Shown here: piece by piece, positions 10,147-55,418 of the stretch
Position numbering within the stretch: position 1 is the stretch's first letter
Layout of the letters: each line of letters begins with the position of its first letter
Assembly: GCA_037135035.1 (NCBI GenBank)
Contig: JBAXLB010000002.1
Location: 71,680 to 135,679 of the forward strand
Reading direction: 5' to 3'
DNA: 64,000 nucleotides
Source: Candidatus Adlerbacteria bacterium
GTDB lineage: Bacteria > Patescibacteriota > Minisyncoccia > Phycocordibacterales > SBAW01
Notes under the pieces: model-generated
Seen by the model: the letters and a program-made list of their open reading frames with translations, nothing else
The model's database searches: none
Told to the model about the DNA's origin: nothing
Made by a program: the position numbers and the translations under genes

Positions 10147-10733
10147 TGCGCGTTGTTGTGGGGACTAAAACTTTGTCAGGCAAAGTTCGCCCGACGTCGC
10201 AAAAAGCGACGTTTAGGGAAGAGCTGCGATGGGAAGATGTGTCTGCAGAAGAGCTTGGCACCTTGGCCTCGACTGCGTCACTCCTTGGTGACACGCAAAC
10301 ATTCGTACTAACCGGCGCGCTTAGTGGCGAGCGGGGAGATGAATTTATTTCGCTCGCAAAGGGTCTTGTCCTTTCGCCACATACATTTATTTTTGAAGAA
10401 GAGAAACTGCTTAAAAAACCAAGCGATGCACTTGCAAAAGCTGGAGTGAAAGCCGAAGTCCAAGAAAAAAAGAAAGCAGCTGAATGGAAGTTTGACCAGT
10501 TTGGAGTTGCTGCAGCGCTCGGGAATCGCGATAAAAAAAAGTTATGGCTCGGCGTTGTAAAGTCGCTCCGTGCCGGAGAAAAACCCGAAGCAATTGCCGG
10601 CCTCTTGGCGTGGAAAGCACGGAACATGAAAGATGCGGCGCTTTCGCGCGAAATTGTAACTTTGTACCACGACTCGCACCGCGGGGCGGGGGACTTGGAA
10701 CTGCTACTCGAGCAGTTCGTGCTTACGTTGTAG
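10143..10733 (+). CDS. Hypothetical protein, possible truncated DNA polymerase III delta (HolA)-like
   Basis: ATGA overlap with polA stop (translational coupling); C-terminal LW..VKSLRAGEKPEAIAGLLAWKAR pattern resembles HolA domain III; only 196 aa. Confidence 0.35.
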   Translation: MMRVVVGTKTLSGKVRPTSQKATFREELRWEDVSAEELGTLASTASLLGDTQTFVLTGALSGERGDEFISLAKGLVLSPHTFIFEEEKLLKKPSDALAKAGVKAEVQEKKKAAEWKFDQFGVAAALGNRDKKKLWLGVVKSLRAGEKPEAIAGLLAWKARNMKDAALSREIVTLYHDSHRGAGDLELLLEQFVLTL

Positions 10734-10740
10734 CTAAATT

Positions 10741-10873
10741 TGTGGTCACGAATAATTCTTCGCCGTCGCGCAGAATTTTCTCGACCCCGGCTCGCGGTTG
10801 TGCAATTGCACAGCAACGCTCCGCCTCGCACAGTAGTGCAAAACGCCCCGAAGGGGGCGTGTTTGCTACTCTG
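10741..10873 (-). repeat. Structured tRNA-trailer repeat element, copy after tRNA-Lys
   Basis: On minus strand: GC terminator cgcccccttcggggcg+U-tract, shared gcgacggcg / gaggcgg blocks, aattct...agaatt hairpin, cgtgaccaca box. Confidence 0.5.
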
Positions 10874-10946
10874 TGCGCCCACTTGGATTCGAACCAAGGA
10901 CCATCTCCTTAAAAGGGAGCCGCTCTACCAACTGAGCTATGGGCGC
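10874..10946 (-). tRNA. tRNA-Lys (anticodon TTT)
   Basis: Reverse complement folds as cloverleaf: acceptor GCGCCCA/TGGGCGC, D-arm AGCTCAGTTGGTAGAGC, anticodon loop CTTTTAA, T-arm GGTTCGAATCC. Confidence 0.85.
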
Positions 10947-14784: not shown

Positions 14785-14794
14785 TTTTTAAAAA

Positions 14795-14828
14795 AGAAAA
14801 GGCCGTCCCGAAAGGGGCGGCTTTTGAT
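14795..14828. terminator. Bidirectional intrinsic terminator
   Basis: aaaaggccgtcccgaaaggggcggcttttg; same 26-nt core recurs at 43233-43258. Confidence 0.65.
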
Positions 14829-18884: not shown

Positions 18885-19153
18885 CTGGTAGAAAGGGCGT
18901 CAGAAAACCCTTTCGTGTTAAGGCAATTTCGTTCGAGGTTTTTTGTCACCTTTGAGAGTGCAGATTTTAGCTTGAAAAATAAGGATTGAAAGTTCGAATG
19001 TTCTGGCTGCTTGCTGTGGACAACGTGTTGATACCAAGCCTTGCTGCGGTTCATTGCGCGTTTAGTTTCCTATGATAGAGTCAACGTGTGCCTGTGGGCG
19101 CAAGCCCCGTTCAGCTAAGGATTTCCTAAGCTGAAGGCAGGCACGACAAAGGT

Positions 19154-21601: not shown

Positions 21602-21674
21602 GCTCCCGTAGTCTAATGGATAGAATACCTCCCTCCGAAGGAGGTGATGCAGGTTCGATTCCTGCCGGGAGCAC
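21602..21674 (+). tRNA. tRNA-Arg (anticodon CCG)
   Basis: Acceptor GCTCCCG/CGGGAGC, anticodon stem CCTCC/GGAGG loop CTCCGAA, T-arm GGTTCGATTCC. Confidence 0.85.
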
Positions 21675-21765
21675 AAAATATGCGGGGCAGATTTTGTGAG
21701 CCGCAAACGCGACGGCGTTGAGGCGGGGTCGCGGAATTTTTCAGCAGAAAAATATCTGTGACCAG
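21675..21765 (+). repeat. Structured tRNA-trailer repeat element, copy A (GC hairpin + AT hairpin + CTGTGACCA)
   Basis: gcgacggcgttgaggcggggtcgc hairpin + T-tract, then atttttc-agca-gaaaaat hairpin (21736..21753), then ctgtgacca. Confidence 0.6.
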
Positions 21766-21767
21766 GT

Positions 21768-22256
21768 TTATAGCCCTAATATTTCTGCTATGTGCTCGCC
21801 AAAGTGGGGCCACTGCTCTTCTTCGCGTGCAAAACGTTTGCAATACACACGGACTTGTTCGGCATGTGCGAGATTGTCGAGTGGTACGGTAATGCGTGGC
21901 GCCAAAATAGACTTTGTTGTCAGGTAAATGCACGGACCGCCGCGTTCTGTATTTGTGTTGACCCAAAAGGAGTCAACCGTTTTCCACAAATACAATGTGC
22001 CGTCGAGTGCGATACCGCGTGAGTCGACACGGACCTGGTGCTCGCGGGGCCCACGAATTTTGAGCGTCATGATAGACCCCGCGCCGATAATTAAAATAAG
22101 TGCGAGCAAAATATTGCCGAAATAAATTGAAAGCCCAGCACCAAGGAGTGTCAGCAACCCAAGCGCCCAGTACCAGTCGGCGGTATGGACTTTATGTTCG
22201 TGAGTAAGTACGTGCCACGTAATATTGTGCTCGTCGGGCATGTCACAAGTATACAC
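21768..22256 (-). CDS. Membrane protein with bacterial PH-like (DUF304-type) domain
   Basis: Two TM helices followed by beta-rich soluble domain. Confidence 0.4.
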   Translation of the reverse strand: MYTCDMPDEHNITWHVLTHEHKVHTADWYWALGLLTLLGAGLSIYFGNILLALILIIGAGSIMTLKIRGPREHQVRVDSRGIALDGTLYLWKTVDSFWVNTNTERGGPCIYLTTKSILAPRITVPLDNLAHAEQVRVYCKRFAREEEQWPHFGEHIAEILGL

Positions 22257-37289: not shown

Positions 37290-37371
37290 GCCCAGGTGGC
37301 GTAATTGGTAAACGCGCTACCTTGAGGTGGTAGTGCCGCAAGGCGTGGAGGTTCAAGTCCTCTCCTGGGCA
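37290..37371 (+). tRNA. tRNA-Leu (anticodon GAG)
   Basis: Acceptor GCCCAGG/CCTGGGC, anticodon stem CTACC/GGTAG loop TTGAGGT, long variable arm, T-arm GGTTCAAGTCC. Confidence 0.85.
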
Positions 37372-37455
37372 CAACATAATGCGGATCGCGAGATTTTCTA
37401 GCAAGAAAATACCTGTGACCAAAGTATCTATGGTTAAGAAAATCCCTGAAAGGGG
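37372..37455 (+). repeat. Structured tRNA-trailer repeat element, copy B
   Basis: attttct-agca-agaaaat hairpin (37393..37410) + ctgtgacca (37413..37421), followed by aagaaaatccc-tgaaa-gggattttctt hairpin. Confidence 0.55.
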
Positions 37456-37534
37456 ATTTTCTTGTACCTAACATTGTATTTTTAACTTGGTTTGGTATGT
37501 TGGCCAGTGGCCACAGTCCTTACAGGAGGAGCTC

Positions 37535-38997: not shown

Positions 38998-39072
38998 GGT
39001 GCTTATGGTGTAACGGTTAACACTCGAGTTTGTGGAACTCGCAATCTGGGTTCGATTCCCAGTAGGCACCCA
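38998..39072 (+). tRNA. tRNA-His (anticodon GTG) with encoded G-1
   Basis: Extra 5' G pairing C73, anticodon stem CGAGT/ACTCG loop TTGTGGA, T-arm GGTTCGATTCC. Confidence 0.85.
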
Positions 39073-39301: not shown

Positions 39302-39775
39302 ATGTCCAAAAAGCCGAAACAAAAATTGCAGGAGTTTGCATTAGTGGTGACCCGTTTTGTGGGTTCGCTCGCGTCTATTGTTGTGCACTCTATTTTATTT
39401 GCCGCAAGCTTTGCTGCGGTGTGGAGCGGGCTAATTACCTTTGACCGGATGCTTTTGGTGCTGACAACAATTGTGTCACTCGAAGCTATCTACCTTTCTA
39501 TTTTTATCCAGATGTCTATTAACTACCAAGCAGCTTCTCTGGAAGAAGTTGAGCATGACATCGACGAGATCCAGGAAGACATCGACGAAATTCAAGAAGA
39601 CGTGGACGAGATCCAGGAGGACGTTGATGAGATTCAGGAAGATGTCGAAGAGATGACCGAAGACGAAAAGGAAGAAGAGGAGTTGCACGCAGGCCAGAAA
39701 AAAACATTGGAAGAAATCCAGGTGGGTTTGAAAAAGCTTATCACCGACATCGAACACTTACAAAATAAACAGTAA
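39302..39775 (+). CDS. DUF1003-like membrane protein with acidic DIDEIQED tandem repeats
   Basis: Two TM helices then 4.x tandem 8-aa acidic repeats and coiled-coil tail. Confidence 0.55.
   Translation: MSKKPKQKLQEFALVVTRFVGSLASIVVHSILFAASFAAVWSGLITFDRMLLVLTTIVSLEAIYLSIFIQMSINYQAASLEEVEHDIDEIQEDIDEIQEDVDEIQEDVDEIQEDVEEMTEDEKEEEELHAGQKKTLEEIQVGLKKLITDIEHLQNKQ
39557..39655 (+). repeat. In-frame 24-nt tandem repeat (about 4 copies)
   Basis: gacatcgacgagatccaggaagac units with synonymous/conservative variation. Confidence 0.7.
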
Positions 39776-42619: not shown

Positions 42620-43042
42620 ATGGCAAAGAAAATAACTAAAAAACTGAAAATTGTAGCGCCGGCCGGCAAGGCAACCCCTGCGCCTCCGCTTGGTACAACC
42701 CTTGGTCCCGCTGGTATTAACATCGGCGAGTTCGTAAAGAAGTTTAATGAGGCAACTCAGGACCGTTTGGGCAGCTTGGTGCCGGTTGAGATCACCATTT
42801 ACGAAGACCGTTCGTACGACTTTGTACTCAAAACCTCACCAGCCTCAAACCTTATTATGAAGAAGCTCGGCCAGGAAAAAGGCTCGGGCAAACCAAACAC
42901 TGCAAAAATAGGTACACTTACCAAGGCGCAGTTGCGTGAAATTGCAGAAGAAAAGATGTCAGACCTTAACGCCAATGACATTGAAGGCGCAATGAAGATC
43001 ATCGCCGGCTCTGCACGTTCAATGGGCGTAGACGTGAAATAA
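42620..43042 (+). CDS. rplK: 50S ribosomal protein L11
   Basis: [35 protein letters not shown] signature. Confidence 0.9.
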
Positions 43043-43140
43043 TTCACGTCTACGAAGCTTTTGAGAGATTTTTGAGTCTCTGCGAAAGAAATCTCCAAAA
43101 GGTGTACTGTTCCTGTAAGGAATGACGTGAATTATTTCAC

Positions 43141-43205
43141 GTCTACGAGCCGGAGACACGACGGTGTCGAGGCGGGCCCGGCGCAATTTTCCAGCAGGAA
43201 AATAT
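43141..43205 (+). repeat. Structured trailer repeat element, copy C (after rplK)
   Basis: gacacgacggtgtcgaggcgggcccggcg then attttcc-agca-ggaaaat hairpin (43176..43193). Confidence 0.55.
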
Positions 43206-43228
43206 GTGTGGGTTGATGTGAAATAAAA

Positions 43229-43262
43229 AAAGCCGTCCCGAAAGGGGCGGCTTTTGCAATCT
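43229..43262. terminator. Bidirectional intrinsic terminator between convergent rplK and 43261..43911
   Basis: aaaaaaagccgtcccgaaaggggcggcttttg (copy of the 14795 terminator core). Confidence 0.65.
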
Positions 43263-43911
43263 AGGACACAGGAACGTCGTGGCGGAACACAACGACGGTG
43301 CGTTTTACTGCGATGTTATTGATACGGTGCAGTACTTGCTGCGGAGAACCTAAAAAACCTGGTCCGCGCATTAAGAGCAAGTCGCCCGGCTCATTGCGGA
43401 TAGGATGAGTGATGGTTCCCACCCTATCCTCGCACGTGCAGAATTGCCCGTTGCCCTCAAGTACCAACAGGGCAATAAGATTTATTACGCTTACTCCGTC
43501 GTAATGAGGTTCGACGCCAACAGGACCAGGGTCGTATGTCTGGACCGACATCTCGGTAAAACAAAGCGGGCGTGACAAGTGATTAGGAAATACGGTTGAA
43601 AACTTATCGTTCAACCATTCCGCTAGCTCGTCTCGAACCTGCAGGAACATACTACCGTCGGGTAACAGCCCCACCATCTTGAGAGCTTGCTTTACTTTGT
43701 GTGGACCCCACTCTGCAGGCTGCCTTACCATCGCATGCTGCGAAAGTTCGAGAAGTAAGTTGCAACGGACATCTGGTTTGAGAAAGTCGGGAACCGTACC
43801 AGCTCCGTACTTTTTAATATCCTCGACGCAGTTCTCCAAAGCACCCGCCCTATCGTTAAAGCTCGACATCGCTGCCTCCCTGTGGGGAACGTTCTGCCTC
43901 GCACTATACAT
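43261..43911 (-). CDS. Hypothetical protein, possible cupin/Fe(II)-2OG oxygenase-like (HxD...H)
   Basis: PHYDGVS and ITHPIRNEPGDLLLMRGPG segments suggest facial-triad fold; weak. Confidence 0.3.
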   Translation of the reverse strand: MYSARQNVPHREAAMSSFNDRAGALENCVEDIKKYGAGTVPDFLKPDVRCNLLLELSQHAMVRQPAEWGPHKVKQALKMVGLLPDGSMFLQVRDELAEWLNDKFSTVFPNHLSRPLCFTEMSVQTYDPGPVGVEPHYDGVSVINLIALLVLEGNGQFCTCEDRVGTITHPIRNEPGDLLLMRGPGFLGSPQQVLHRINNIAVKRTVVVFRHDVPVS

Positions 43912-52067: not shown

Positions 52068-55000
52068 ATGGATGATTTGAAGCAGGGCGGGGAAGAGCTG
52101 CACCCAGAAGCGGTGCATAAACCAAAAAGTACTTTTGCCGTACGGGAGGAAAAGACTCTCGCGTTTTGGGAAGCACAGGACATATTTAAAAAATCGCTCG
52201 AGAAGCATGCGCCTAAGGGCGAGTTTGTTTTCTACGATGGTCCGCCGTTTGCAAACGGCTTACCTCACTATGGGCACTTGCTCCAAAGCACAATAAAAGA
52301 CGCCATACCTCGCTACCGCACGATGCGGGGGTACCGTGTGCCGCGCCGCTGGGGATGGGACTGCCACGGTCTACCGGTTGAAAACTTGGTAGAAAAAGAA
52401 TTGGGGTTTAAGTCTAAGCGCGACATTGAAGAGTTTGGCATTGCAAATTTCAACAAAGCTGCTCGAACAAGCATCATGAAAGATGTTGCGGACTGGAAAC
52501 GAATTATCCCACGCATCGGACGCTGGGCTGACATGGAGAACGACTACAAGACGATGGACTCGACCTATACCGAGTCTGTCTGGTGGGCGTTTAAAAATTT
52601 GCACAGTCGCGGACTTATTTACGAGGGCTTCAAGGGCATGCATTTTTGTCCTCGTTGTGGAACGACGCTTTCCAACAACGAAGTGGCCCAAGGCTACATG
52701 GACATTGAAGACATTGCGGTCACAGTAAAATTTCCACTTGTAGACGAACCGGAAACATCCATACTTATTTGGACCACCACTCCCTGGACCTTGCCGGGCA
52801 ACACTGCAGCTGCAGTAAACGCCGACGCTGTATATGTAAAAGTCCGCACAGACGAAGGCTTTGTTGTTGTTGCGAAAGAGCTTATGACAAAAGTGCTTGG
52901 CGAAGATGCAAAAATATTTGCCGAGATACTTGGAAAAGACCTGGTAGGTAAACGATACAAACCGCCATTTAGTTATTTCGAACATACGCTCCATAAACAT
53001 AAAAGCCACGCGTATAAAATATACGCCGCACCGTATGTGACGCTTGAAGACGGCACGGGCATTGTCCACCTTGCACCTGCCTACGGCGCAGAAGACTTGA
53101 TCTTTGCCCAGAAAGAAAAAATTCCGCTTATCCAACACGTCACTGACGAAGGTAAATTTATCGCAACGGTCACCGACTTTGTAGGGCTCTCGGTCAAACC
53201 AAAAGGTCGCCATATGGAAACGGATGCAAAGATTGTAGAGAACCTGCACGCCCGTGGGTTGCTTTTCCATCAGGAAAAAATAACTCACTCATACCCGCAC
53301 TGCTGGCGCTGCGACACACCGCTCCTCAACTGGGCTGCAAATTCCTGGTTTGTAAGTGTTTCAAAAATAAAACCAAAATTGTTGGCACAAAATAAAAAAG
53401 TTTCTTGGGTGCCGAAAAGCACGGGAGAAGGGCGTTTCCAAAAAGGTCTTGAAAGTGCGCCTGACTGGGCAATTTCCCGCAGCCGTTACTGGGGCGCACC
53501 GCTACCAGTTTGGCGCCACAGCAAAACCAAAGAATTGAAAGTGATGGGCTCTGTTGAAGAGCTGTTACAGGTTGTGCGCCGCTCAGGTAACAAATATTTT
53601 GTAATGCGCCACGGCGAAGCACAGTCAAACGTCGACAATGTGGAAGATATCGAAGGTGACCCAAATAACCACCTCACCAAGAAAGGTAAGGCACAGGTGT
53701 TGTCTGCTGCACGAGCACTTGCTTCAAAAAAAATAGACATGATAGTTACGTCGCCTTTTGTGCGGACTAAAGAAACAGCGCACCTCTTGGCGAACGAGTT
53801 TGGCCTGCCTGAGTCTGCAGTTATGGTGGACACTCGTTTGGGAGAAGTAGCCCATGTAACACCTGAACTTTGTCGCAATGTAGGCGAATTTATTTTTGAA
53901 ATTGAGAGGCGTTACAGCGGCAAAAACATACTTGTAGTTTCGCACGGCGGCGCTATTTGGGCATTGCAGCAAGTAGTTGGGCGCCAACCGACGACAGGTT
54001 TTTACCGCACAGCTATGCTCGGTAATGCAGAGTGCGCAGAACTACCGTTTGTGCCGTTCCCACATAACGAACAGTACGAACTTGACCTGCACCGGCCGTT
54101 TATTGACGACATCCTGCTTGGGGACTCTTTGGCGGGGGAGTGGAAGCGTGCCCCCGATGTGTTTGATTGTTGGTTTGAGTCGGGTTCGATGCCGTACGGG
54201 TCTAACCACTATCCGTTTCAAAAAAACAATTTCAATCCGAAAAAAATGTTTGGATTGATGCCAAAGGGATACCCAGCCGACTTTATTGCAGAAGCTGTTG
54301 ACCAGACACGTGGCTGGTTCTACTCGCTTATTGTGCTCGGGACGGCGCTCTTTGGGAGGTCGCCATACAAAAATGTTATTACGACAGGGCTCATTAATGC
54401 GAGCGACGGTAAGAAGATGAGTAAACGATTGAAAAATTATCCTGACCCGCTTGATCTTATCGACAAATACGGAGTTGACTCGCTCCGCTATTACATACTG
54501 TCGTCACAACTTGTCCGCGGTGAAGACCTGAGTTTTAAAGAACAAGGGGTTGAAGAAGTTTCAAAAAAACTCCTGATGCGTTTGGACAACGTCGTGTCGT
54601 TCTATGAACTGTATGCAAACAGCACGACCCGCTCGAATGAAAGTACACACGCACTCGACCGGTGGATTTTGTCGCGGTTTGGGGAGTTGACCACACAAAC
54701 CACTGCAGGGTTTGAAAGTTATGAGCTTGATGCGGCGACACGCCCGCTCGCATTGTTTATCGACGACCTCTCTACGTGGTACCTGCGCCGTTCTCGTGAC
54801 CGTTTTAAAACAGATGGGGAAGGGAAGGTGCAGGCGCTCGCTACATTGCGCTTTGTGTTACACACGCTTGCACACACTATGGCGCCCGTGATGCCGTTTT
54901 TTGCCGACGAGTTGTTTGGCCGTATGAAGGAAGAAGGTGACCCAGAGAGTGTCCATTTGTCGGGTTGGCCTGCCGCAGAAAAAGTAGATACAGCGCTGCT

Positions 55001-55418
55001 TGCCGACATGGTCCGCGTGCGCGAGGTGGCGTCGAAGGGGTTGGAGTTGCGCGAGTCTGCGGGTATAAAAATTCGCCAGCCTCTTGCTGCGCTTGTGGCA
55101 AAACAACTTCCCAACGACGACGGCCTACGCGCACTTATTAAAGACGAATTAAATGTAAAAAAAGTAGTAGAAGATGTCGCACAAGTAAACGATGTTTCGC
55201 TCGACACAGAACTGACTCCAGAATTAAAGGAGGAGGGTGTCGTACGCGACTTGGCGCGCCGCATACAAGAATGGCGCAAAGAGCAAAAACTAACTATTGC
55301 CGACAGGCCCGTCTGCACACTTCTAGTCTCTGCGGAAGAAAAAATAGTTGCTGAAAAAAATAAAACAGCTCTTATGGCCCAGACTGGCCTAGAGGACCTG
55401 CAGTTGGTGGTGAAGTAA
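52068..55418 (+). CDS. ileS: Isoleucyl-tRNA synthetase (type 2) carrying an inserted histidine-phosphatase domain
   Basis: HYGH, WDCHGLPVE, editing domain, RSRYWGAPLPVW, DVFDCWFESGS, KMSKR; ~170-aa RHG/SHGG phosphatase-fold insertion at 53571..54078. Confidence 0.9.
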   Translation: MDDLKQGGEELHPEAVHKPKSTFAVREEKTLAFWEAQDIFKKSLEKHAPKGEFVFYDGPPFANGLPHYGHLLQSTIKDAIPRYRTMRGYRVPRRWGWDCHGLPVENLVEKELGFKSKRDIEEFGIANFNKAARTSIMKDVADWKRIIPRIGRWADMENDYKTMDSTYTESVWWAFKNLHSRGLIYEGFKGMHFCPRCGTTLSNNEVAQGYMDIEDIAVTVKFPLVDEPETSILIWTTTPWTLPGNTAAAVNADAVYVKVRTDEGFVVVAKELMTKVLGEDAKIFAEILGKDLVGKRYKPPFSYFEHTLHKHKSHAYKIYAAPYVTLEDGTGIVHLAPAYGAEDLIFAQKEKIPLIQHVTDEGKFIATVTDFVGLSVKPKGRHMETDAKIVENLHARGLLFHQEKITHSYPHCWRCDTPLLNWAANSWFVSVSKIKPKLLAQNKKVSWVPKSTGEGRFQKGLESAPDWAISRSRYWGAPLPVWRHSKTKELKVMGSVEELLQVVRRSGNKYFVMRHGEAQSNVDNVEDIEGDPNNHLTKKGKAQVLSAARALASKKIDMIVTSPFVRTKETAHLLANEFGLPESAVMVDTRLGEVAHVTPELCRNVGEFIFEIERRYSGKNILVVSHGGAIWALQQVVGRQPTTGFYRTAMLGNAECAELPFVPFPHNEQYELDLHRPFIDDILLGDSLAGEWKRAPDVFDCWFESGSMPYGSNHYPFQKNNFNPKKMFGLMPKGYPADFIAEAVDQTRGWFYSLIVLGTALFGRSPYKNVITTGLINASDGKKMSKRLKNYPDPLDLIDKYGVDSLRYYILSSQLVRGEDLSFKEQGVEEVSKKLLMRLDNVVSFYELYANSTTRSNESTHALDRWILSRFGELTTQTTAGFESYELDAATRPLALFIDDLSTWYLRRSRDRFKTDGEGKVQALATLRFVLHTLAHTMAPVMPFFADELFGRMKEEGDPESVHLSGWPAAEKVDTALLADMVRVREVASKGLELRESAGIKIRQPLAALVAKQLPNDDGLRALIKDELNVKKVVEDVAQVNDVSLDTELTPELKEEGVVRDLARRIQEWRKEQKLTIADRPVCTLLVSAEEKIVAEKNKTALMAQTGLEDLQLVVK

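Follow-up and report, generated by a model that had tools for sequence, protein, structure and literature searches.

Introduction

What is the structured element that recurs behind tRNA genes and behind the ribosomal protein gene rplK in a Candidatus Adlerbacteria genome, and is it a host RNA or a repeat that settles beside tRNA genes? The stretch studied here (the window) comprises 64,000 nucleotides of contig JBAXLB010000002.1 (positions 71,680 to 135,679, forward strand); all coordinates below are window positions unless a locus is named. A preliminary description, drawn from the letters of the window, had proposed a family of homologous elements in the trailers of tRNA-Arg(CCG), tRNA-Leu, tRNA-Lys and rplK, with an AT-rich hairpin kept by compensatory changes. 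On balance we lean towards the reading that each of these four loci holds a copy of one structured RNA module, uncatalogued and Patescibacteria-wide, that is duplicative and rides in tRNA transcription units.

Results

A conserved core with covarying helices

The fold was derived from alignment A1 (MAFFT; 41 canonical copies plus window copies A and D), which was not fitted to a model, and from a listing of the flanking sequences. The core measures ∼ 75 nt and consists, in this order, of a 4-nt NNRA junction, a helix P2, the dinucleotide GG and a helix P3; the whole folded module is roughly 80 nt. GAAA, GCGA, GUGA and GCAA (GNRA) together make up ∼ 45% of the junctions in the copies listed. 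P2 begins with a 3-bp clamp whose middle pair covaries (C-G, A-U, U-A, G-C), above which stand a GGA/GA tandem-GA internal loop, a freely covarying stem of 4–5 bp and a GNNG loop (mostly GACG). The tandem G-A is well kept, with GGA in 100 and GA in 138 of 148 listed genome matches. The lower stem of P3 has 9 bp (GGUCGCGAG paired with CUUGUGACC, with two conserved G-U pairs) and is topped by a bulged A and a 7-bp A-U stem with an AGCA cap (AUUUUUC-AGCA-GAAAAAU). Tabulation of the listed copies gave unpaired bases and G-U pairs that are invariant across copies. The AT-rich hairpin is kept by covariation but is only the tip of a three-helix core, which the preliminary description had missed. A pseudoknot between CGAC in the P2 loop and GUCG in P3 was rejected, as loop variants are unmatched by changes in P3.

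All core helices (P2a, P2b and P3) covary, with 92–93% of cells paired versus 39–51% in slid controls. In A1, 92.9% of cells are paired (slid controls 39–46%), 18 of the 30 pairs have changed on both sides, and none of 500 shuffles attained the observed values; the covarying columns lie mostly outside the 19-base signature used for searching (see below). Covariation extends to 30 of 30 pairs in the 148 model matches from 100 listed genome loci, and a metagenome replicate (111 listed matches) gave 91.3% paired cells and covariation in 28 of 30 pairs. G-U pairs outnumber A-C mismatches by ∼ 6:1 (110:18 in A1, 334:58 in alignment A3), an excess that identifies the folding strand as the tRNA-sense strand as given. 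The compensatory changes thus go beyond controls and belong to one strand, as expected of a conserved structured RNA. Selection for structure, which had been suggested from the hairpin, is borne out as a single-strand fold in the tRNA sense, and we consider it likely that the module acts as RNA.

Distribution of the family

The 19-base signature ATTTTNNAGCANNAAAATANNTGTG was scanned against one genome per prokaryotic species, giving at least 120 loci, and against metagenome contigs, giving at least 120 further loci. Among the 120 genome loci listed, 115 belong to Patescibacteria, from at least ∼ 94 assemblies (by a count of accession prefixes) and several classes: Paceibacterota/Parcubacteria lineages together with metagenome-assembled genomes (MAGs) labelled Saccharibacteria and Levyibacteriota. 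The other five (Bacillota, Bacteroidota, archaea) are without the flanking blocks and are accounted for by chance, ∼ 4 matches being expected by our own arithmetic for 19 fixed bases and ∼ 1.2e12 positions scanned. A signature scan of viral contigs gave no match, and a phage-borne element was rejected on this ground.

A covariance model (R1), built from 41 copies of other genomes plus window copies A and D, found 148 copies over 100 listed genome loci and 111 copies over 100 listed metagenome loci. The family is spread over the Patescibacteria assemblies counted above, keeps its covariation in the larger sets and is not private to this genome. We regard the structured-RNA family as almost certainly real. 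The window belongs to an Adlerbacteria MAG, its PolA being 100% identical to a protein of that name; one of the loci of the family, L085, comes from another Adlerbacteria MAG and is 94% identical to the window over 4 kb.

Link to tRNA genes and orientation

With a limit of 200 nt between copy and tRNA, the 118 listed signature copies from genomes have a same-strand tRNA upstream in 43 cases and downstream in 27, and one on the opposite strand in 3; the metagenome set listed gave 43, 27 and 2, respectively. Nearest-neighbour tRNAs lie on the same strand as the listed copy in 77 cases and on the opposite strand in 7, whereas protein-coding neighbours show no orientation bias (24 same versus 28 opposite upstream, 49 versus 45 downstream). 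The element is often found between two tRNAs, for example as Lys-element-Leu in L044, L105, L114 and L115. The association with tRNA genes is hence a strong same-strand tie, but not a universal one, since about half of the listed copies have no tRNA within 200 nt. Copy C of the window lies on the minus strand along with tRNA-Lys, while the GC skew of the window is positive throughout (the plus strand being the leading strand); orientation therefore tracks the tRNA and not replication in this one case.

Two apparent regularities were discarded. An over-representation of tRNA-Ser was present in the first (genome) set and did not repeat in the second (metagenome) set, and supposed tandem arrays upstream of tRNA-Asn proved to be one element with a 5' arm copied from the 5' end of tRNA-Asn. 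At two loci (L051, ∼ 300–470; L112, ∼ 1900–2060) copies lie inside a partial tRNA duplicate, the intact tRNA following a few tens of bases further downstream; the duplicates comprise Arg-TCT from the D arm to the variable loop and Ala-TGC positions 1–24.

Closing stems copied from the neighbouring gene

The helix adjoining the core is not constant. Its components are a segment taken from the end of the neighbour (X), the complement of that segment (anti-X) and a further direct copy of it (X'), where X is drawn from the tRNA T-loop to discriminator, the last tRNA bases, a tRNA 5' end or the last rplK codons. Behind a tRNA the order is X (the tRNA 3' end), trailer, anti-X, core and X'. The trailer between X and anti-X is often a terminator-like hairpin, and X' spans the middle of the T-loop to the discriminator, sometimes reaching into the trailer. 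In type-1 copies the closing stem reproduces the T-stem of the adjacent tRNA and sometimes the top of its acceptor stem, with the core replacing the T-loop; in most of them X and X' form a direct repeat that begins in the T-loop or after the discriminator. In type-2 copies, including window copies A and C, X is restricted to the last tRNA bases plus CA, so that the hairpin begins within the tRNA end, and the element directly follows the discriminator. Copies 5' of a tRNA are mirrored (copy of the tRNA 5' end, core, its complement, spacer, tRNA).

Direct duplications range from ∼ 7 to 62 nt, and the outer arms vary between copies in accordance with the local flank; the 62-nt repeat, in L004, stands on either side of an 83-nt core segment. 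Copies at rplK use the last codons and the stop as X. In L018, L062, L085 and L111 the rplK end, anti-X and X' all differ in sequence while the same relations are kept. When an upstream X was strictly defined as an inverted match of 12 nt, with no more than 2 mismatches, in the 216 nt preceding the copy, 25 of 114 listed copies (22%) had one, versus 2.2 expected. In older-looking copies (L012, L026, L098) X' has been retained where it pairs with anti-X and has decayed elsewhere, a pattern that would fit duplication followed by selection on the stem alone. The idea that anti-X is a binding site for the mature tRNA, like a primer-binding site, was rejected because anti-X is complementary to the gene's own trailer and not to CCA. 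Several genomes have a mini-hairpin with a UACU or UAAU loop (GTGTACTCAC, ATGTACTCAT, GCGGTAATCCGC) inside the X' arm directly after the core (L004, 4655–4675; also L015, L025, L056, L107, L022, L045 and L110).

Copies in the window

The window contains eight tRNA genes, on which ARAGORN and Rfam agree. R1, run over the whole window with filters off, returned four matches, A, D, C and B, so that all four loci named initially are recovered; only A and D are typical full copies, however, C being divergent and B comprising P3 only. The AT-rich hairpin ATTTTNNAGCANNAAAAT occurs exactly three times in the window, always on the plus strand: at 21736–21753 after tRNA-Arg(CCG), at 37393–37410 after tRNA-Leu(GAG) and at 43186–43203 after rplK. 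Its two variable stem positions change together (TC/GA, CT/AG, CC/GG). The homology and the compensatory changes inferred from these sites were correct, and they recur as covariation in the larger sets. Of the blocks said to be common to the copies, the composite is significant but each singly is at chance level (CGACGGYG, 8 occurrences versus 4.1 expected; GAGGCGGG, 3 versus 1.5; TGTGACCA, 3 versus 1.5). A degenerate copy proposed after tRNA-Arg(GCG) (18964–18980) and GTGAC boxes proposed after tRNA-His (39075, 39211) could not be substantiated, as R1 gave no match near either place at E ≤ 10. A weak P3-like hairpin at 53254–53288 (17.6 bits, E = 0.019), within an open reading frame (ORF) of 1116 amino acids (52068–55418), is probably due to chance.

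Copy A (21688–21771, plus strand, 80.5 bits) follows tRNA-Arg(CCG) (21602–21674, plus strand), which has no encoded CCA and whose last bases are the 5' arm of a hairpin P0. As judged from sequence and predicted fold, P0 (CACAAAAT/ATTTTGTG, 11-nt loop) occupies 21672–21698 on the plus strand, and its 3' arm (anti-X) adjoins the core. P2, defined by alignment, model and fold, lies at 21700–21724 on the plus strand, with a GCC/GGC clamp, the internal loop, an ACGC/GCGT stem and a GACG loop. P3 (21727–21763, plus strand) has the lower stem GGTCGCGGA/TCTGTGACC with G-U pairs, the bulged A and the tip ATTTTTC-AGCA-GAAAAAT. The 'GC hairpin plus U-tract' of the preliminary description is not a terminator, its run of U forming the 5' side of the long P3 hairpin. 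The predicted fold of 21674–21775 has z = −4.1; those of copies A, D and C each consist of three hairpins in succession.

Copy D (43137–43221, plus strand, 69.5 bits; predicted fold z = −4.6) follows rplK (ribosomal protein L11, identified by Pfam; 42620–43042, plus strand), whose last codons and stop are its segment X. X as a whole, the rplK end plus a small hairpin (43027–43050, plus strand), is the left arm of a perfect 24-nt inverted repeat of which anti-X (43124–43147, plus strand) is the exact reverse complement. Model and fold place P2 at 43149–43173 and P3 at 43176–43213 on the plus strand. X' (43212–43226, plus strand) is an imperfect direct copy of the rplK end that still reads V-D-V-K-stop. 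An ordinary GC hairpin terminator, common to rplK and the convergent gene, lies at 43224–43256 and is separate from the element. By Pfam, nusG precedes rplK in the window. No rplA stands behind rplK; the next gene (43261–43911) is convergent and without a Pfam match, and in a more distant relative (L123) rplK is followed by argS. Two terminator hairpins (AAAAAGCCGTCCCGAAAGGGGCGGCTTTTG) at 14791–14826 and 43221–43256, 28 kb apart, are 92% identical.

Copy C (10736–10835, minus strand, 36.8 bits, E = 1.6e-7) lies outside the training set of R1 and has a divergent, full-length core. It follows tRNA-Lys(TTT) (10873–10946, minus strand; ARAGORN and Rfam), which has no encoded CCA in this genome. 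By sequence and fold its P0 (10828–10876, minus strand) is a long hairpin whose start lies in the final bases of tRNA-Lys and whose tip is GC-rich and terminator-like; the predicted fold of 10730–10875 has z = −5.8. P2 carries an additional 20-nt hairpin, and at the tip of P3 a GCGCGACGGCG hairpin replaces AGCA. This replacement explains the different block order given earlier for the tRNA-Lys copy, which was mistaken: cgacggcg lies in the P3 tip and not in P2. The same variant of P2 and P3 tip is found after tRNA-Lys(TTT) in L040.

Copy B (37383–37420, plus strand, 35.8 bits, E = 2.8e-7) is truncated to P3 (model positions 37–74), P2 being absent and the P3 lower stem having two mismatches. 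It follows tRNA-Leu(GAG) (37290–37372, plus strand; ARAGORN and Rfam), which is likewise without encoded CCA. From its sequence, copy B reads as a putative deletion derivative of an A-like copy, with ∼ 41 nt lost between two GCGGGG/GCGGA repeats. Such a deletion would account for the leader common to the trailers of tRNA-Arg(CCG) and tRNA-Leu, which had been noted before and is real in the sequence. An ordinary terminator-like hairpin (AAGAAAATCCCC..GGGGATTTTCTT, 37437–37463, plus strand) lies 3' of copy B, separate from the element.

Gain, loss and nesting of copies

Relatives differ by the gain or loss of copies, and modules are found nested within other modules. Three syntenic relatives (PolA 71–73% identical) share the gene order T2SSE, tsaE, polA, 197-aa ORF, tRNA-Lys and SpoU methylase with the window and possess tRNA-Lys(TTT), yet R1 (filters off, E ≤ 1) found no element at this gene in any of them. 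In the related locus L123 rplK is present without the element. Orthologues of copy A, sought via the adjacent protease gene, were not found in conserved synteny. The tRNA-Lys(TTT) gene itself switches orientation among the relatives inside one conserved gene neighbourhood (L124, 6379–6452, plus; L125, 6950–7025, minus; L126, 6111–6186, plus; window, 10873–10946, minus). Its CCA is encoded in L125 and L126, as read from their sequences, but not in the window, where the hairpin of the element begins at that spot.

At rplK, comparison with L085 reveals a 93-nt insertion in the window (43051–43143) that is absent from L085 (compare L085, 2141–2165). Its first part is a different sort of module with two hairpins (GGTGTACTG-N4-TGTAA; 43051–43123, plus strand), and its second part, 43124–43143, belongs to the exact 24-nt reverse complement of the upstream rplK end. 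The predicted fold of the nested module with its 24-nt inverted copy has z = −11.2. The insertion is a recent event with the same signature of a target plus its inverted copy. By contrast, the 90 nt of core D (43136–43225) are identical to L085 amid surrounding DNA that differs at 6% of sites; by our own arithmetic the chance of zero differences is ∼ 0.004, which points to constraint on the core.

The GGTGTACTG-N4-TGTAA signature also occurs in L001, L029, L037 and L064, at the position usually taken by the main core, and these modules look like a second family of small modules. In L040 (6640–7210, minus strand) no fewer than four different modules are strung together behind tRNA-Lys. Each has a complement of the 3' end of tRNA-Lys (GTCCGCCCG or GTAGGAATCGAA) in front of it, and several also have a copy of this end behind them.

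Searches for known families, linked proteins and terminators

Rfam release 15 (4227 models, including ribozymes, tRNA-like and Y-like RNAs, group I/II introns and leaders) gave tRNAs only when the window and 15 loci were scanned at gathering scores. At E ≤ 10 on a canonical copy, matches over the core had E ≥ 0.08, far below gathering scores, and the sole matches below 0.001 were microRNA models on the adjacent tRNA-end palindrome. A known RNA family was therefore rejected. Searches of the published literature by topic and by literal sequence found no description of such an element or its sequence, and the family is undescribed as far as the libraries used show.

All-against-all clustering of the ORFs within 1.5 kb of the 148 copies gave no recurrent protein family, the largest cluster covering 7 of 100 loci; within that distance there is thus no linked transposase, integrase or reverse transcriptase.

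A terminator scan found no terminator-like site in either full copy (A, D). P3 ends in GUGACC, then A or G, so that ACC takes the place of a U tract, and the ordinary GC-hairpin terminators downstream of copies B and D are separate. The element lacks the G+C-rich hairpin with an immediate U tract and is not an intrinsic (Rho-independent) terminator, which leaves the termination module among the roles first considered without support. Of those roles, a small repeat that targets tRNA trailers fits best, given the three syntenic relatives without the element and the duplicated tRNA ends that flank copies.

Other features of the window

At the tRNA-His 3' end (39064–39071) similarity to L085 (∼ 6142) stops exactly within the last 8 nt. 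In L085 the DNA in front of GGCACCCA is unrelated, and the 8 kb of this locus contain no called tRNA; the site looks like an island border or a rearrangement. Five tandem 21-nt units at 39542–39667, 61–74% identical to a 42-nt reference, lie in ORF 39302–39775 and encode an acidic, D/E-rich, heptad-like repeat. An inverted repeat of 51 nt (8628–8678/28765–28815, 84% complementary) has its arms 20 kb apart, one of them inside polA.

Discussion

Comparison with known systems

In kind, the family resembles orphan structured RNA motifs and small dispersed repeats; it is set apart from known examples by its cross-class conservation, its tRNA-sense-only orientation and its target-copied stems. REP/BIME, ERIC, Correia and cyanobacterial small dispersed repeats are small hairpin-forming intergenic repeats. 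Like the element they are short, multi-copy and hairpin-forming, encode no protein, are mostly intergenic and at 3' ends, and may nest. Unlike repeats of the REP/BIME type, the element is conserved with covariation across at least ∼ 94 species of several Patescibacteria classes, has no constant terminal repeats, takes its outer stem from the neighbouring tRNA or gene end and is oriented with tRNA genes, and no RAYT-like gene recurs nearby. No cognate Y1 transposase, as would mark a REP/RAYT or IS200/IS605 system, was found within 1.5 kb of 100 loci. The strand choice of REP/RAYT elements is tied to replication; the single case bearing on this in the window, copy C, lies on the minus strand with its tRNA where GC skew is positive. 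The element also differs from miniature inverted-repeat transposable elements in having neither constant terminal inverted repeats nor a target duplication of fixed length.

Integrase-borne islands attach in tRNA genes at T-loop and 3'-end sublocations. As in such islands, the tRNA 3' end is directly repeated on either border of the element and the tRNA is left intact. It differs in that only ∼ 85–150 nt of non-coding DNA lie between the repeats, with no integrase and no cargo, that it carries an inverted copy of the target, and that tRNA 5' ends and the rplK stop codon show this architecture as well. Bacterial small RNAs derived from tRNA spacers, like the products of plant dicistronic tRNA-snoRNA genes, are expressed from tRNA transcription units and excised by the enzymes of tRNA processing. 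The element likewise is a structured non-tRNA RNA that immediately follows or precedes a tRNA of the same orientation; it is, unlike them, a multi-copy family with a constant core and many copies without a tRNA neighbour, and its own processing is putative. tRNA-like minihelix mimics are found in the tRNA-like modules of bacterial Y-like RNAs, in transfer-messenger RNA (tmRNA) and at viral tRNA-like ends. Mimicry is clear in type-1 copies, where the closing stem reproduces the T-stem of the adjacent tRNA, but weak in window copies A and C, which copy only the last tRNA bases, and in older copies X' has decayed beyond the pairing region; the Rfam tRNA, tmRNA and Y-like RNA families gave no match over the element.

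With hammerhead, twister and related ribozymes the element has in common a compact multi-helix junction, invariant junction and loop bases and an occurrence in several helix contexts, sometimes in series. However, no Rfam ribozyme model matches it. The tandem G-A/A-G of P2 beside a short G-C clamp recalls a kink-turn, but the 5' side of P2 (GGA) provides a 1-nt bulge and not the defining 3 nt. An identity with TIGR-Tas was rejected, as PMC12045711 describes a different system: the TIGR arrays of Patescibacteria and phages are regular, give rise to 36-nt RNAs and lie beside a Tas (Nop-domain) gene (PMC12045711), whereas copies of the element are dispersed, measure ∼ 80–100 nt and have no recurrent neighbouring protein. 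The same paper cites work (its refs 66–67) on plant dicistronic tRNA-snoRNA genes and their processing by RNase Z.

Proposed explanation and its alternatives

We propose that the module would be transcribed with the tRNA unit or from a neighbour's promoter, and that tRNA-processing enzymes would free it as a stable RNA of ∼ 100 nt. The invariant loops, bulged A, tandem G-A and G-U pairs may form a platform for a protein, another RNA or catalysis. New copies could arise at tRNA ends via homology- or template-switch-driven copying, a step that would write the target both directly and inverted. That the family is duplicative or mobile seems to us probable; in any specific function of the core we have much less confidence. 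It is conceivable, though we think it unlikely, that the core represents a Patescibacteria-specific new class of catalytic or guide-bearing RNA that copies itself beside tRNA and rplK ends. It would then be a mobile RNA free of protein genes, moving by an RNA or template-switch route, with the tRNA-end mimic as a homing or processing handle.

Several points weigh against the proposal of a duplicative RNA module in tRNA transcription units. Alignments A3 and A4, which are behind the large counts, were fitted to the model, 19 columns are set in advance by the signature itself, and the genome and metagenome collections overlap partly (same Hainich samples). Transcription, processing and release are read from strand bias and position in the sequence, and in many tRNA-linked copies a terminator-like hairpin separates the tRNA from the core, which would limit read-through from the tRNA. 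Among the proteins within 1.5 kb we found no enzyme able to move or copy the element. Presence or absence at one orthologous locus can be read as loss rather than gain, and the near-identity of P3 across classes could equally fit a host function without mobility.

A host function could take the form of a cis-acting processing or stability switch, in which anti-X would pair alternatively with X or X'. The core would close only when X is busy, either folded in the tRNA or under a ribosome terminating at the rplK stop, and once closed would mark the transcript for 3' trimming or shield it from exonucleases. Five lineages (L018, L062, L085, L111 and the window) have retained both pairings in their rplK copies despite differing codons, the differences between X' and X mainly preserve G-U pairing with anti-X, type-2 elements stand directly after the tRNA discriminator, and copy D has no substitution relative to L085. 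We nonetheless hold a switch to be improbable: about half of the listed copies lack a tRNA within 200 nt, copies are randomly oriented with respect to the protein-coding genes beside them, tRNA-Lys orthologues lack the element, mirror-form copies also occur upstream of tRNAs, and only 22% of listed copies pass the strict upstream-X test. Equally little weight goes to a new small self-cleaving or self-ligating ribozyme that would drive an RNA-based mobile element. Here the junction and loops would be the catalytic core and the variable flanking helix a substrate or guide helix, which would explain why the core is found in several helix contexts. The same core does occur in three- to five-way junctions with differing outer helices, as in hammerhead and twister permutations, its unpaired bases and G-U pairs are invariant, modules are nested and the target is duplicated. 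On the other hand, Rfam gave no ribozyme match even at E ≤ 10, no cleavage site can be named, and no reverse transcriptase or other partner recurs within 1.5 kb.

The strand-specific fold, the nested insertions and the long near-perfect palindromes that take in the tRNA end would also suit a DNA-level hairpin repeat (REP/PATE-like), which a transposase or recombinase would recognise in trans in its single-stranded form, and DNA hairpins tolerate G-T pairs. This explanation appears doubtful to us, since neither a Y1 transposase nor any other recurrent protein lies within 1.5 kb in 100 loci, the sequence is conserved across classes, unlike species-specific REPs, and the orientation of copy C, the one case in the window, follows the tRNA and not the replication strand; moreover, conserved loops and bulges are rarely required of a DNA hairpin signal. 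Generic AT-rich terminators or chance similarity, to which the chance-level frequency of the short blocks alone would have lent itself, were rejected and retain practically no weight in view of composite scores of 70–80 bits in the window, hundreds of homologues with covariation and the lack of a terminator-like site in either full copy.

Significance

Patescibacteria, with their very small genomes, represent much of bacterial diversity and remain almost uncultured. The strongly conserved, multi-copy fold beside their tRNA genes is either central to their RNA biology or a selfish element of great success. A host RNA might serve as a processing signal, bind a protein or act as a ribozyme, whereas a selfish element would be unusual in how it incorporates copies of its target; either answer is new. 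Odd tRNA trailers, partial duplicates of tRNAs and contig breaks in Patescibacteria genomes are explained by the element, which is also usable as a taxon-specific marker.

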